The position numbers and the translations under genes were made by a program. A DNA stretch of 5,033 nt from a virus. Taxonomy: Duplodnaviria; Heunggongvirae; Uroviricota; Caudoviricetes. Of the stretch, positions 3,229 to 4,930 are shown piece after piece. The number at the start of each line of letters is the position of its first letter. The stretch's first letter is position 1. Where the stretch lies: IMG/VR virus record IMGVR_UViG_2706794662_000015; one strand, written 5' to 3'. Below the pieces are notes generated by a model. It saw nothing but the letters and a program-made list of their open reading frames with translations. It had not been told where the DNA came from and made no database searches.

Positions 3229-3291
3229 AATTGCCCCGTATGATGCTGCCCGGTTGCTTAGAATAAGCACAAACAGCATGGAAACTTTTGC

Positions 3292-3714
3292 TTAATGAAC
3301 AATGACAGAATCGTCGGAAGACCCGCCGCCGCTGAAATGCGCTTTCCGGTAAACGGCCTGGACTGCATCATCATGCGCATCAATTGCCGTACTCAACGCT
3401 TCCTGCGCCGCCAGTAATGCACGGCGTTCCAGGGTATCGAAGATGCAGAGTCGGTGACGCAGCTCGCGCGGAAGAATTGCCAGAACCGCAGGGATCAGTT
3501 TCTGAATTTTTTCCCTTTGCGCTTTCGTTTCACCTTTCAACCAACGGTGATAGATATTCTGCTGATTGTTCCAGTCCTTGCCTGGTACAAGGGGCAATTC
3601 GCCGCCCCCCTGGCGCAGATATTCTTCAGTAATTGCGTTAGCGACCCACGCCTGCCCTTTTTCGGCTGCCAGGGCTAACAACACTGATTCGATGTGCTCA
3701 TGCCTGATTTTCAT
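3292..3714 (-). CDS. ydaT: cII-like / YdaT-like prophage protein (140 aa)
   Basis: Intact ORF whose ATG (3714..3712) overlaps the upstream stop in an ATGA junction (3711..3714), indicating translational coupling. Position (after the cro-like gene, before the replication genes) and length (140 aa) match Rac YdaT. The symbol rests on synteny and length, not on a verified alignment. Confidence 0.6.
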   Translation of the reverse strand: MKIRHEHIESVLLALAAEKGQAWVANAITEEYLRQGGGELPLVPGKDWNNQQNIYHRWLKGETKAQREKIQKLIPAVLAILPRELRHRLCIFDTLERRALLAAQEALSTAIDAHDDAVQAVYRKAHFSGGGSSDDSVIVH

Positions 3715-3953
3715 GAATCAACCGCTCCTATGCTGTTTTCGCTATGCTTACCGTCTGGGGGGAATACATCGTCAAGTCCACAATGAGCGCCAAGCCGATT
3801 AAGGGTAGAAACAATTTTTCTGCACTCCTCTAGTCCAGGGGTACGAAAATTTGCTTCGTAATTTGCCAGTCGGCTTTGTATCCACCCTAACTGAACAGCA
3901 AGTTGTCTTTGAGACAGCCCAAGCTGTTTTCGATATGTTGAAATTTTGTTCAT
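3711..3953 (-). CDS. Cro-like HTH_XRE DNA-binding protein (80 aa), YdaS-like
   Basis: ATG at 3953 with GGAGG RBS 7 nt upstream. HTH signature QLGLSQRQLAVQLGWIQSRLANYEA. Divergently transcribed from the repressor gene. Confidence 0.75.
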   Translation of the reverse strand: MNKISTYRKQLGLSQRQLAVQLGWIQSRLANYEANFRTPGLEECRKIVSTLNRLGAHCGLDDVFPPDGKHSENSIGAVDS

Positions 3954-4049
3954 TGAAAACCTCCGATGACAATTTTAAACACACCTTGTGTTATATAGCC
4001 AAGCTGTTTTGTGTTTTATGTAAATCACGATTCGTGATACAAGGATGCA
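3954..4049. promoter_or_regulatory. Divergent promoter/operator region between the cro-like and cI-like genes. Candidate operators: AACACA-cct-TGTGTT (3978..3992) and ATCACGA-t-TCGTGAT (4024..4038). Candidate leftward promoter: -35 at 3997..4002 and -10 at 3974..3979 on the minus strand, 17-bp spacer containing the first palindrome
   Basis: 96-bp AT-rich spacer between divergent HTH genes containing two perfect inverted repeats. The promoter hexamers are weak matches, so their assignment is tentative. Confidence 0.45.
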
Positions 4050-4469
4050 ATGGAAAAAGAAAACGAAAAAATTGCCGCTAGTAGGCTCAATGACAAAATT
4101 GCAATGCGTCTTAAAGAGCGCAGGCAGAAGCTTGGTTTATCTCAAGGAAAACTTGCTGAAATCTGCGGATGGACGCAATCGCGTATAGGTAACTATGAGG
4201 CGGGCAGCAGAAATGTTGGAGTACATGACGCTGTCGTATTGGGAAAGGCACTTGGCATATCTCCTCCTGAGCTCCTCTTTGGAGAACAGGAATCTTCTGA
4301 ATTGTGGTTAAATGAATCCCAACGAAAACTTCTTGAGTTGTTTAACCAGCTACCGGGCTCAGAACAACAACGAATGATTGAGCTATTTGAAGTCCGGCTA
4401 AAAGAAATCGATGAGTATGTAGAAAAATATTTGAGAGGCAGGATTAAAGATAATCCCCCACCGGAATAA
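4050..4469 (+). CDS. cI-like prophage repressor, HTH_XRE family (139 aa), RacR/DicA-like; no LexA-type (S24) autocleavage domain
   Basis: ATG at 4050 with AAGGA RBS (4041..4045). HTH QKLGLSQGKLAEICGWTQSRIGNYEAG is closely related to the cro-like protein's HTH. The C-terminal half is helical-looking (LLELFNQLPGSEQQRMIELFEVRLKEIDEYVEKYL) and lacks the Ala-Gly/Ser/Lys pattern of S24 peptidases. Confidence 0.75.
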   Translation: MEKENEKIAASRLNDKIAMRLKERRQKLGLSQGKLAEICGWTQSRIGNYEAGSRNVGVHDAVVLGKALGISPPELLFGEQESSELWLNESQRKLLELFNQLPGSEQQRMIELFEVRLKEIDEYVEKYLRGRIKDNPPPE

Positions 4470-4499
4470 TGATCTTGCTATCACAGTAATATGCCAATC

Positions 4500-4523
4500 A
4501 GCCCGCTATCAGCGGGCTTTTTT
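4500..4523 (+). terminator. Rho-independent terminator after the repressor gene
   Basis: Stem AGCCCGCT (4500..4507), loop ATC, stem AGCGGGCT (4511..4518), then a T-run (4519..4523), 31 nt after the repressor stop. Confidence 0.7.
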
Positions 4524-4565
4524 GTAGCATCATCATATGACACTCACCATAAAACACATTGCGTG

Positions 4566-4594
4566 TTGACACAAGAAAACAAATTGTGTTTAAT
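4566..4594 (+). promoter_or_regulatory. Near-consensus sigma70 promoter (pL-like, rightward): TTGACA (4566..4571), 17-bp spacer, TTTAAT (4589..4594)
   Basis: Perfect -35, 17-bp spacing, 5/6 match at -10. Inverted repeat AACAC-N5-GTGTT (4553..4567) overlaps the -35 and shares half-sites with the 3978..3992 palindrome. Confidence 0.45.
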
Positions 4595-4774
4595 AAGCAT
4601 ATCCAAACAACGCCCCACCAGAGAACGGCAGGACAATACCTCGAGTTATCCAGTCACTGAACAGGGCTAAGTAGCCAGCCTGAGGCATACGAACATGACG
4701 GCAGTTGTTGATTGATACAAAGCGCAGTAGATAAAACGTTCCGCCACCCGGCGTTAAGGGGAAATGGGGTCAAC

Positions 4775-4930
4775 ATGAATACTATCGATCTTGGCAACAA
4801 CGAATCTCTGGTATGTGGCGTGTTTCCCAATCAAGACGGCACATTCACCGCCATGACGTATACCAAAAGCAAAACGTTTAAAACCGAAGCTGGCGCACGT
4901 CGTTGGTTGGGAAGACATTCAGGTGAGTAA
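4775..4930 (+). CDS. Small hypothetical prophage protein (51 aa; MNTIDLGNNESLVCGVFPNQDGTFTAMTYTKSKTFKTEAGARRWLGRHSGE), possibly a YdaF-like small protein
   Basis: ORF track 4712..4930 uses a TTG start; I prefer ATG 4775 with a GGGG motif 5 nt upstream. Position (beyond the repressor, same strand) and length match the small ydaF-type genes next to racR in Rac, but I do not recognise the sequence with certainty. Confidence 0.45.
   Translation: MNTIDLGNNESLVCGVFPNQDGTFTAMTYTKSKTFKTEAGARRWLGRHSGE

Follow-up and report, generated by a model that had tools for sequence, protein, structure and literature searches.

A predicted lambdoid OR region between a DicA-family repressor gene and a cro-like gene of an E. 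coli prophage

Introduction

Within a 5,033-nucleotide stretch of caudoviral DNA (the window), two genes for helix-turn-helix (HTH) proteins diverge from a short spacer that contains two inverted repeats. The first-pass annotation proposed a lambda-style cI/cro switch at this locus and raised the question of which of the two palindromes is the operator. Sequence and comparative evidence bears out such a switch, and the reading favored here, at a probability of roughly 85%, is that positions 3954-4049 are the OR region of a lambdoid prophage with the promoters PR and PRM and with predicted sites for the repressor and Cro. The question of a single operator is replaced by an array centered at 3985, 4008 and 4031, in which both palindromes would take part. 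The immunity region is real but ordinary, and this kind of switch is well understood.

Results

Divergent regulators of the prophage

The genes and signals around the spacer are as follows.

3711..3953, minus strand: cro-like gene, 80 aa (ORF list; Pfam HTH_3, E = 6.7e-10)
3960..3964, minus strand: SD sequence GGAGG of cro, separated by 6 nt from its ATG at 3953, read from the sequence
3954-4049, 96 bp: spacer between the divergent cro-like and repressor genes
4050..4469, plus strand: repressor gene, 139 aa, with HTH families only in Pfam
4500..4525, plus strand: intrinsic terminator after the repressor gene, 8-bp stem (6 of its pairs G-C) and then TTTTTTG

The annotated pair of divergent HTH genes was recovered: both ORF products were HTH_3 proteins in Pfam, and the RefSeq annotation agrees. 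Divergent repressor and cro genes with a short regulatory spacer, here 96 bp, form the arrangement of the lambdoid CI/Cro type. The two proteins had been said to possess near-identical recognition helices, and a BLASTP comparison confirmed this (19/42 identities), the string LGLSQ..LA...GW.QSR(L/I).NYEA being common to both. LGLSQ and G-x-x-QS of lambda CI are kept in the repressor as well as in the Cro-like protein, whose recognition helix is GWIQSRLANYEA. Residues 8-27 of the latter align with lambda CI with LGLSQ and QS retained, and its best PDB match was 28tn_A, a "lambda repressor-like protein" (E = 8e-15).

The repressor showed 29% identity over its full length with DicA of K-12 (BLASTP, E = 2e-15) and 31% identity with the N-terminal domain of lambda CI (E = 2e-6), and its residues 12-80 showed 58% identity with the N-terminal domain of mEp213 cI. 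Its HTH N-terminal domain is like that of lambda CI and its helical C-terminal domain like that of DicA, and no S24 peptidase domain was detected by Pfam. With HTH_3, a DicA-like C-terminus and no S24 domain, it is a DicA-family short prophage repressor. The prophage is an E. coli lambda-like element with a Rac-like backbone.

Three sites of one consensus in the spacer

The spacer carries three 15-bp sites.

3978-3992, unstranded: OR1, AACACA-CCT-TGTGTT, perfect palindrome in the PR spacer/-10 region
4001-4015, unstranded: OR2, AAGCTG-TTT-TGTGTT, half-site that fits the consensus in its right arm only
4024-4038, unstranded: OR3, ATCACGA-T-TCGTGAT (AATCACGATTCGTGATA), perfect palindrome of the ATCAC subtype

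Both annotated palindromes, OR1 and OR3, were present at their positions with perfect arms. They had been described as distinct, but a single consensus, A(A/T)CAC-N5-GTG(T/A)T, covers the two, and OR2 belongs to it as well. The centers of OR1, OR2 and OR3 are located 65, 42 and 19 bp upstream of the repressor ATG, respectively, and neighboring centers are 23 bp apart; the same distance separates two further sites (centers 4560 and 4583) in a second cluster, OL. As a 17-mer, OR3 is composed of the half-sites AATCAC and TATCAC, the same type as TATCAC of lambda. The spacer therefore holds several sites of one consensus, which overlap promoters as judged from the sequence only. We predict that the two palindromes are OR1 and OR3, the outer pair of a three-site right operator. 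The OR2 half-site, the OL pair at 4553-4590 and the closeness to the lambda operators had been overlooked in the first-pass annotation.

Palindromes of this size are common in the window. Those with perfect 6-bp arms and 0-4 bp spacers numbered 13, against 6.0 ± 2.8 in shuffled sequences, and perfect palindromes with 7-bp arms numbered 4, against 1.5 expected. Neither palindrome is therefore significant alone, as had been correctly cautioned, and both might be functionless features of an AT-rich spacer. Against this stands their recurrence: at no more than one mismatch, AACACAnnnTGTGTT had 3 matches in the window where 0.01 were expected, and AWCACnnnnnGTGWT had 4 where 0.53 were expected, neither count being equaled in any of 200 shuffles. 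All consensus matches were located in the two promoter regions flanking the repressor gene. The regular 23-bp spacing likewise argues against chance, as does the recurrence of this operator type in independent phages that share the recognition helix.

Another reading takes the palindromes as RNA hairpins in divergent leaders, that is, attenuators or stability elements instead of DNA sites. Short hairpins can indeed be folded from both, but their folding energies are ordinary (z -0.4 to -1.1; 31-68 of 200 shuffles fold equally well or better), the stems are only 5-6 bp with no T-run after them, and no Rfam match was obtained. Since most sites would lie upstream of the transcription starts, given the inferred promoters, and more copies with identical spacing occur at a third promoter, we regard this reading as very improbable.

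Conservation of the operator arms

Sequences of relatives were collected by scans of viral contigs, and the OR footprint was examined in 35 distinct spacer versions from 84 related loci. Among these versions, 37 of the 96 spacer positions were variable. The arm positions delimited in the first-pass annotation varied at 2 of 26 positions versus 35 of 70 elsewhere (Fisher p = 7.6e-5), and the core arm positions at 0 of 25 (p = 4e-7), while the central bases varied freely. In OR1, the arms 3978-3982 and 3987-3992 were invariant and 3984-3986 variable; in OR2, positions 4007-4017 were invariant and the left arm, 4003-4006, variable; in OR3, positions 4023-4029 and 4032-4039 were invariant and 4030-4031 variable. 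The block 3956-3964, which contains the cro SD sequence, was invariant as well. The OL footprint displayed the same pattern in 54 versions. The palindromes are thus conserved in related prophages, and the invariance of their arms in 35 variants, with varying linkers and central bases, suggests that both behave as operators. Conservation, recurrence and the operators of mEp213 and Chris1 effectively refute the chance reading.

OR2 and OL1 have one good arm apiece. In addition, promoter hexamers overlap several conserved arms, namely the left arm of OR1 and the right arms of OR3, OL1 and OL2, and the promoter rather than the operator could account for part of the conservation of those arms.

Promoters of the cro-like and repressor genes

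The following promoter elements were placed in the spacer.

3972..3979, minus strand: putative PR -10 block TTTAAAAT, directly abutting OR1
3997..4002, minus strand: putative PR -35 TTGGCT, which is TTGACC in most relatives
4034..4042, plus strand: putative extended -10 of PRM, TG-a-TACAAG, with the repressor ATG 6 nt downstream

In an in-register alignment, the PR -10 block lines up with the lambda PR -10 GATAAT (its PL equivalent is GTGTTTAAT), and the PR -35 aligns with the lambda PR -35 TTGACT. The PR -35 is also placed relative to the operators in the same way as the PL TTGACA at 4566-4571. Relatives carry TGATAAAAT or TGATAAAAG at the PRM -10 position, 6-7 nt before the ATG. A consensus promoter scan reported none of PR, PRM and PL; it gave only a site inside the coding sequence of cro and another past the repressor gene. 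Because the scan missed them, the assignments are founded on the lambda alignment and on conservation. Each proposed -10 is weak or requires a spacer of 18-19 bp, and TACAAG of PRM is without the usual final T.

The 19-bp distance from the OR3 center to the start codon also occurs in lambda, Chris1 and more distant repressor classes. The cI mRNA of lambda is leaderless, and the repressor mRNA of this prophage is probably leaderless too. An SD-like AAGGA is located 4 nt before the repressor ATG, which speaks against an exclusively leaderless transcript.

It might be supposed that the repressor operators are confined to sites of the AACAC type (OR1, the OR2 half-site, OL1 and OL2) and that ATCACGA-T-TCGTGAT is functionally separate, being read by Cro or another factor only or being just the PRM promoter, to which a symmetric partner was added by accident. 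OR3 does differ from the other four sites, with T instead of A at arm position 2 and G instead of A at position 6 in 35 of 35 variants; its right arm shares bases with the extended -10 TGATA, an element kept from one repressor class to another, and it resembles the operators TTCACAcaTCGTGAT of a second cassette served by an identical Cro. However, its left arm (4023-4029) is invariant though it lies outside the proposed PRM -10, it keeps the position of lambda OR3, at a distance of exactly 23 bp from OR2 and of 19 bp from the ATG, and it has the common A-CAC-N5-GTG-T core. Mixtures of arms are, moreover, found elsewhere: lambda operators of one repressor mix TATCAC and TAACAC half-sites, and mEp213 operators mix AACAC, ATCAC and ACCAC arms. 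A separate role for OR3 thus seems improbable, and it would instead be a conserved ATCAC-subtype variant of the same operator.

A second cluster beyond the repressor gene

Downstream of the repressor gene, two sites accompany a PL-like promoter.

4553-4567, unstranded: OL2, AACACA-TTG-CGTGTT, overlapping the PL -35 by 2 bp
4566..4571, plus strand: PL-like -35 TTGACA, counterpart of lambda PL and Qin dicBp
4576-4590, unstranded: OL1, AAAACA-AAT-TGTGTT, in the PL spacer/-10 region
4589..4596, plus strand: putative PL -10 block TTTAATAA, invariant in close relatives

As a 17-mer, OL2 is identical to lambda OR2 at 13 of 17 positions. In 54 variants, AAAACAC-N5-GTGTTGAC of OL2 was invariant with varying central bases, and the right arm of OL1 was invariant with a weaker left arm, of which AAAAC was kept in close relatives and not in the 84%-identity class. 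The TTGAC of the PL -35 was conserved in nearly all variants, and the PL block GTGTTTAAT was invariant in all 54. OL2 and OL1 thus flank TTGACA in a conserved arrangement, as in an early-left operator cluster. Inspection by eye of 23 bp on either side of OL1 and OL2 gave no third OL site.

Comparison with lambda, mEp213 and Chris1

The annotated lambda operators have their centers at distances of 19, 42 and 66 bp from the start codon of cI, compared with 19, 42 and 65 bp in this element, and the OR centers are 23-24 bp apart in lambda and 23 bp here. The half-sites are TATCAC, TAACAC and CAACAC in lambda and AATCAC, TATCAC, AAACAC, TAACAC and CAACAC here. An ungapped alignment to lambda anchored at the start codon gave 38/80 identities, against 21 ± 3.9 for shuffles, of which 0 of 5000 reached 38. 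Both have divergent repressor and cro genes and a second operator cluster at PL beyond the repressor gene, and operator positions 2-6 are common to both, whereas positions 7-8 differ. Unlike lambda, OR2 is a half-site, only two OL sites are recognizable, YdaT replaces cII, and Cro is an HTH_3 protein outside the lambda Cro fold family; the S24 self-cleavage C-terminus of lambda CI is replaced by the DicA-like helical domain. The specificity is not that of imm-lambda (operators TATCACCGnCGGTGATA), to which only the N-terminal domain is related, at 31% identity, the C-terminal domain being unrelated. We therefore distinguish two statements: the element is predicted to work like lambda's operators, and its immunity type differs.

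Further counterparts were found in the lambdoid phage mEp213 and in Citrobacter phage Chris1. The recognition helices of mEp213 (cI, GWASQSRIGNYESG; Cro, GWNQSRLANYES) and of Chris1 (GWAQSRIGNYEAG and GWRQSRLSNYEN) are nearly the same as those described here, and the N-terminal domains are 58% and 65% identical to that of the repressor, respectively. Both phages have arrays of the operator type A(A/T/C)CAC-N5-GTG(T/A/G)T at OR and OL. In mEp213 there are three OR sites, all of them full palindromes, and three OL sites; the counterpart of the OR2 half-site is the full palindrome AACACAAATCGTGTA. Chris1 has OR1, OR3 and one OL site. On the other hand, mEp213 cI has a classic S24 C-terminus and the phage a lambda-type cII, and neither is present in this prophage.

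Comparison with Qin, CP-933P and Rac

DicA of the cryptic prophage Qin (E. coli K-12) resembles the repressor in being short and without S24 and in sharing the C-terminal LELFN.LP.SEQ motif. Its operators lie between the divergent genes and at the downstream promoter of the DUF1391 (ydfA) gene, as here (bioRxiv 10.1101/2023.04.14.536235). The DicA-region repeats, however, are of the TGTTAG/CTAACA type and not CAC-N5-GTG, and DicC has no similarity to the Cro-like protein, which sets aside a DicC-type module.

CP-933P of E. coli O157:H7 has a similar layout, in which a 97-bp spacer separates the gene of the short CI-like PaaR2 from the cro-like gene of YdaS, with ydaT next in line. PaaR2 and YdaS each give a footprint on the spacer, PRM is the promoter that YdaS preferentially represses, and the repressor transcript has no leader; the same operators recur at a PL-like promoter, and YdaT binds the cro/ydaT junction (PMC8630535, PMC9986795). 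Its operators are of the GTTTAGTAA type, unlike those described here, and its repressor gene is followed by the paaA2-parE2 toxin-antitoxin pair instead of a terminator and PL.

YdaT of Rac (K-12) is 97% identical to YdaT here, and a YdaT-box is present at the ydaT start in both (PMC11879457). RacR has three 6-3-6 inverted-repeat operators, a geometry shared with this spacer; O1 falls on the promoter of ydaS and O3 at the start of racR, whose strongest promoter gives a leaderless transcript (PMC9638921). The RacR operator, (T/A)TAGGC-n3-GCCTA(T/A), differs from the present one, and no significant similarity to RacR or Rac YdaS was found, so that the immunity is not of the Rac type; the likeness to Rac is limited to YdaT and the genes downstream of ydaT. 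YdaT was also considered as a reader of the spacer palindromes and rejected: TTGATT-N6-AATCAA fits weakly, with 3 mismatches at 4011-4028, and its matches in total (4 versus 3.5 expected) are at chance level. A good YdaT-box is located at 3704-3721, outside the spacer.

An exchangeable cassette that excludes cro

The repressor and its operators form one block.

3954..4598, unstranded: exchangeable immunity cassette containing OR, the repressor gene, the terminator and OL/PL

In other prophages this cassette is swapped as a block for a second type. Identity to strain U90 and phage pPE4 breaks off at the start codon of cro and returns at "catatccaaacaacg", at about 4599, so that the boundaries are exactly the cro start codon and a point just after the PL -10. 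The window cassette has the repressor helix GWTQSR and AACAC-type operators, and in the second cassette TTCAC-type operators go with a 61% identical repressor whose helix is GWSGSSR. One and the same cro allele, encoding the helix GWIQSRLANYEA, adjoins either cassette, and each of the two cro alleles (80 or 84 aa) is found with each cassette type. Because the identical Cro also accompanies TTCAC-subtype operators, it may not read all sites equally. OR3 is the site most alike between the two cassettes. If the cassettes are heteroimmune, Cro might conceivably be a generalist that acts on the shared CAC-N5-GTG core, chiefly at OR3, although we consider this rather unlikely.

Discussion

The sequences, recurrence, spacing and conservation of the sites and the homologies of the proteins were observed directly. 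From them a mechanism can be proposed, in which binding, the order in which the sites are occupied, the points where the promoters start, activation and induction are inferred. OR1 would be situated between the -35 and -10 elements of PR, from which cro is read leftward, with the OR2 half-site abutting the PR -35, and OR3 would overlap the extended -10 of PRM, the repressor's own promoter. OL2 and OL1 would cover the PL-like promoter driving ydfA-like early-left genes. Repressor dimers filling OR1 and OR2, and OL1 and OL2, would turn PR and PL off, and repressor at OR2 may also stimulate PRM by analogy with lambda. Occupation of OR3, by Cro first or by excess repressor, would turn PRM off.

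The DNA-reading residues of lambda CI and Cro, namely a Gln that opens helix 2 and a Gln-Ser pair that opens helix 3, appear in both proteins. Both could read the sites because these residues are kept and fit lambda-type half-sites. In view of the shared helix and the results on homologous systems (PMC8630535), the repressor and Cro may bind the same operators with opposite preference, which would make the switch bistable. Since the repressor is without an S24 domain, and by analogy with DicA (bioRxiv 10.1101/2023.04.14.536235), induction is probably brought about by an antirepressor, as with DicA, and not by RecA-stimulated cleavage.

The understanding of lambdoid switches is unchanged by these results. 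The map of operators and promoters that they provide is precise and testable, and it applies to an immunity type found in 162 of 5426 complete E. coli genomes (about 3%), including O157:H7 and O145:H28 strains. They also indicate that a short DicA-type repressor can bear a lambda-CI-like DNA-reading head together with lambda-like operators. The pair of mEp213 and this element illustrates domain shuffling between S24-type and antirepressor-type repressors, and a predictive rule may be stated that links the QSR recognition helix with A(A/T)CAC-N5-GTG(T/A)T operators. The Cro shared by two cassettes constitutes a small natural experiment on Cro specificity and prophage cross-talk. If Cro is indeed a generalist, the exchanged immunity unit would be without cro, unlike the textbook imm region, and a heteroimmune neighbor could have its repressor switched off by the Cro that a prophage makes.

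A search of genome contigs with the repressor alignment gave 226 pattern matches, none of which was confirmed, and a literature search with the RefSeq protein accessions gave no match. In the E. coli genomes carrying this immunity type, both regulators are annotated merely as "helix-turn-helix protein", and the names of the protein clusters are generic. A Rha-family gene was observed downstream in a near-identical locus (L001).

Genetic context of the spacer

The spacer at 3954–4049 occupies the 96-bp gap between divergent cro-like and repressor-like ORFs. A Pfam search of both proteins returned HTH_3 and nothing else notable; an S24 peptidase domain was absent from the repressor. The following features surround the spacer.

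3711–3953, minus strand: cro-like ORF, 80 aa, Pfam HTH_3
4050–4469, plus strand: repressor-like ORF, 139 aa, Pfam HTH_3, divergent from the cro-like ORF
4500–4518, plus strand: intrinsic terminator 3' of the repressor gene
4775–4930, plus strand: DUF1391 (ydfA/ydaF-like) gene, beyond the terminator

The gene order on the minus strand is cro-like, YdaT (the counterpart of cII; 97% identity with Rac YdaT of K-12), YdaU/DUF1376, DnaC-like ATPase and DUF977. An 801-bp region around the spacer palindromes was present in 162 of 5426 complete E. coli genomes, including O157:H7 and O145:H28 strains, and was chromosomal in every case. The gene context and these exclusively chromosomal copies indicate that the host element is a Rac-like lambdoid prophage. 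In protein comparisons, RacR and Rac YdaS had no similarity to the repressor and Cro of the window, and its immunity genes are evidently different from Rac's own. Qin DicA and the window repressor are homologous over their full length (29% identity, E=2e-15), the C-terminal LELFN.LP.SEQ helix region included. Qin DicC was unrelated to the window Cro in the same kind of comparison.

A run of 250 N (1568–1817), flanked by a 198-bp direct repeat (1367–1564 and 1822–2019, 94% identical), falls within the DnaC-like/YdaU region. It has the appearance of a gap left in scaffolding or of a duplication joined in error, and ORFs called across it (e.g. 872–1948) are artefacts.

Predicted operator array in the spacer

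The first-pass annotation had described two distinct palindromes between proteins sharing an HTH core and had left open which of them is the operator. Both sequences, AACACA-CCT-TGTGTT at 3978–3992 and ATCACGA-T-TCGTGAT at 4024–4038, were present with perfect arms, and BLASTP of Cro against the repressor gave 19/42 identities over the helix-turn-helix, the common string being that given in the first-pass annotation, GLSQ..LA...GW.QSR(L/I).NYEA. Its caution about chance palindromes was justified: the whole window contains 13 palindromes with perfect arms ≥6 bp long and 0–4 bp spacers, versus 6.0 ± 2.8 in shuffles (four versus 1.5 for 7-bp arms), and neither spacer palindrome is significant by itself. 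Two further perfect palindromes, TGCTTAGAATAAGCA (3255–3269), within the ydaU-like ORF close to its start codon (3279) and near the ydaT stop (3292), and TCCCTTCCGGAAGGGA (2732–2747), within the ydaU-like gene, are both within chance expectation.

When one mismatch at most was allowed, the first palindrome had three matches in the window versus 0.01 expected, a number reached by 0 of 200 shuffles. Its copies OL2 and OL1 lie on either side of TTGACA (4566–4571), shortly 3' of the terminator that follows the repressor gene, a position taken by OL/PL in lambda and by dicBp in Qin. Centre-aligned, the two spacer palindromes have A-CAC-N5-GTG-T in common, and AWCACnnnnnGTGWT with at most one mismatch occurs at exactly four sites in the window (OR1, OR3, OL2 and OL1; 0.53 expected). 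The centres of the spacer palindromes, 3985 and 4031, are 46 bp apart, with a further site at their midpoint; the OL2–OL1 distance is also 23 bp.

4001–4015: OR2, AAGCTG-TTT-TGTGTT, centre 4008 (exact midpoint), right arm perfect, left arm degenerate
4553–4567: OL2, AACACATTGCGTGTT, copy of the first palindrome with at most one mismatch
4576–4590: OL1, AAAACAAATTGTGTT, copy of the first palindrome with at most one mismatch

The shared consensus, the midpoint site and the 23-bp spacing therefore point to a three-part array, OR1-OR2-OR3, in the spacer and to OL2-OL1 at the downstream promoter. The spacer is thus predicted to be the OR region of a lambdoid immunity switch, with the palindromes as OR1 and OR3. 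The annotated palindromes do not have separate identities but form one operator family, both fitting A-CAC-N5-GTG-T, and consensus, spacing and conservation indicate that both are operators.

Conservation in related prophages

An IMG/VR scan for loci encoding the repressor returned 80 loci, 65 at ≥97% identity and 15 at about 84%; even in the 84% group the HTH domain is identical. From the 80 loci plus four of E. coli, 35 distinct spacer versions were obtained, in which 37 of the 96 positions varied. Palindrome conservation, suggested as a check in the first-pass annotation, was borne out: 2/26 arm positions were variable versus 35/70 elsewhere (one-sided Fisher p=7.6e-5, rough because the sequences are kin), and none of the 25 core positions (AACAC/GTGTT of OR1, GTGTT of OR2, ATCAC/GTGAT of OR3) varied (p=4e-7, rough for the same reason). 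Variation was free in the central 2–3 bases of each OR site and in the inter-site linkers. Among 54 distinct OL versions, AAAACAC-N5-GTGTTGAC and GTGTTTAAT were unchanged and the centres variable; OL2 is a perfect AACACA-N3-TGTGTT in some relatives. This pattern is the footprint that would be expected of sites read by dimeric HTH proteins. As caveats, several operator arms coincide with promoter hexamers, and there is no constraint on the left arm of OR2, nor on that of OL1 in the 84% class.

Comparison with lambda and phages sharing the recognition helix

The annotated lambda operators have the half-sites TATCAC, TAACAC and CAACAC; the 17-mers of the window have AATCAC, TATCAC, AAACAC, TAACAC and CAACAC. 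Lambda OR2 (TAACACCGTGCGTGTTG) and window OL2 (AAACACATTGCGTGTTG) both lead into a TTGAC −35 element. In lambda, the distances of the OR3, OR2 and OR1 centres from the cI ATG are 19, 42 and 66 bp; in the window, the distances from A4050 are 19, 42 and 65 bp. When the 80 nt 5' of each repressor gene were aligned without gaps, counting from the start codon, 38 positions were identical (shuffles, 21 ± 3.9, 0/5000 reaching 38; other offsets, ≤31% identity). The N-terminal domain of the window repressor is 31% identical to that of lambda CI (E=2e-6), in which ELGLSQ...GMGQSGVG matches KLGLSQ...GWTQSRIG; the counterpart in the window Cro is LGLSQ...GWIQS. In lambda repressor and Cro, the Gln starting helix 2 and the Gln-Ser starting helix 3 read TATCAC positions 2 and 4. 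The invariance of A2, C4, A5 and C6 in the operators is attributable to the retention of these residues in both window proteins.

A tblastn search of sequenced phages yielded two informative relatives, mEp213 and Citrobacter phage Chris1. The mEp213 cI is of the classic S24 type, with an N-terminal domain 58% identical to window repressor residues 12–80; its helix is GWASQSRIGNYESG and that of Cro GWNQSRLANYES. The mEp213 OR consists of three sites, AACACATATTGTGAT, AACACAAATCGTGTA and ACCACGGAATGTGAT, their starts being spaced by 23 and 24 bp, and three OL sites lie directly 3' of cI. Chris1 has a DicA-type repressor that shares 65% identity with that of the window; OR1 is AACACATAATGTGTT, OR3 is AACACGTAACGTGGT with its centre 19 bp from the ATG, and the site 3' of the repressor gene is AACACATGCCGTGTT. 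As these S24-type and DicA-type phages show, recognition helix and operator type travel together, irrespective of the repressor C-terminal domain.

The centre of mEp213 OR3 (L147 878–904) is 13 bp upstream of the annotated cI start (ATG 898, protein MRMNRTE...). Measured from the second ATG (Met3, 904), the OR centres lie at −19, −43 and −66, as in lambda and the window; Met3 may therefore be the true, probably leaderless, start.

Putative promoters

A consensus promoter scan of the window did not report PR (cro), PRM (repressor) or PL. The following elements were assigned from alignment to lambda and from conservation and are putative, apart from GGAGG.

4002–3997, minus strand: PR −35, TTGGCT (TTGACC in most relatives)
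3979–3972, minus strand: PR −10 block, TTTAAAAT
3964–3960, minus strand: GGAGG of cro, between the PR −10 block and the ATG at 3953
4034–4042, plus strand: PRM TG-a-TACAAG, in the OR3 right arm and 6 nt short of the ATG

OR1 occupies the PR spacer up to the −10, and OR2 shares 2 bp with the −35. PL has the same layout (TTGACA, 4 nt, OL1, TAATAA), OL2 sharing 2 bp with its −35. Position 3999 is C in the window and T in most relatives, giving TTGGCT versus TTGACC/TTGACT in nearly all related prophages; the cro promoter of this copy may be weakened.

At the PRM position, relatives carry TGATAAAAG or TGATAAAAT 6–7 nt before the ATG, some without any Shine-Dalgarno sequence. The distance from the OR3 centre to the start codon is fixed at 19–20 bp in lambda, the window, Chris1 and more distant classes, and would otherwise have no reason to persist, which argues for a leaderless repressor transcript. 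Lambda cI mRNA is leaderless. The same has been shown for PaaR2 (PMC8630535) and RacR (PMC9638921) mRNAs. The PRM −10 of the window is weak, and AAGGA, 4 nt before the repressor ATG, could serve a longer transcript from a YdaT-dependent promoter.

Exchange of the immunity cassette

Next to the same Cro, 33 IMG/VR loci as well as strain U90 and phage pPE4 carry a second cassette; the 80-aa and 84-aa alleles of this Cro both have the identical HTH. The second repressor shares 61% identity with that of the window and has GWSGSSR as its helix. Operators of the second cassette comprise TTCACAtttCGTGAG, a CGTGAG half-site and TTCACAcaTCGTGAT at spacings of 24 and 25 bp, and its PL bears CTCAC-type sites. 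Identity between the window and second-cassette loci ends at the cro start codon and returns just past the PL −10, at about 4599, and all four combinations of cro allele (80/84 aa) and cassette type were found. OR, repressor gene, terminator and OL/PL are exchanged as a cassette with sharp boundaries. Between both cassettes OR3 is the most similar site, which would be compatible with a Cro that recognises the shared core with a preference for OR3.

The exchanged block corresponds to window 3954–4598 and, in the comparison loci, to L002 1758–2372 and its equivalent in L003 (PP818812.1, 'Actinobacillus phage vB_Apl-pPE4'); an identical cro occurs with two repressor/operator types, AACAC and TTCAC. 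Phage pPE4 and E. coli U90 have near-identical immunity regions that agree in cro, ydaT, the repressor and the spacer, which is unexpected in a phage assigned to Actinobacillus pleuropneumoniae and suggests very recent transfer or a mis-assigned host.

Lambdoid immunity switches of this kind are thoroughly known. The specificity of the present one appears uncharacterised, since both proteins bear only generic names and no literature matches were found for them.

Proposed regulation

We infer every mechanistic step from homologous systems. Repressor dimers would bind OR1 + OR2 and OL1 + OL2, binding to half-sites probably needing cooperativity. PR would then be off and cro, ydaT and the replication genes silent; with PL off, the ydfA-like operon would also be silent. 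Repressor on OR2, centred at −42, would be positioned to stimulate PRM in the manner of lambda CI, and filling of OR3 would block PRM. OR3 is a conserved variant: in 35/35 spacer versions, arm position 2 is T and position 6 is G; this retention suggests a built-in affinity difference, repressor binding more weakly, Cro more strongly, or both.

3704–3721: YdaT-box at the cro stop/ydaT start, CTGATTTTCATGAATCAA, minus strand TTGATTCATGAAAATCAG

This box has one mismatch to the CP-933P YdaT site TTGATT-N6-AATCAA (PMC9986795) and matches the Rac YdaT-box ATGATTCATGAAAATCAA almost completely; the Rac box activates a ydaS-internal promoter in reverse orientation, from which racR is transcribed (PMC11879457). 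On this precedent the window box is probably a PRE-type control element, by way of which YdaT would stimulate a promoter within cro and probably increase repressor production. Because the repressor is without an S24 domain, prophage induction probably proceeds through an antirepressor, as for DicA (bioRxiv 10.1101/2023.04.14.536235).

In L001, a near-identical E. coli locus, the stretch at 8116–8955, past the right end of the window, encodes a phage regulator of the Rha family and carries a RecE gene in interrupted form. The Rha-family gene is a candidate antirepressor for the S24-less repressor; IS elements in L001 show that this prophage copy is decaying.
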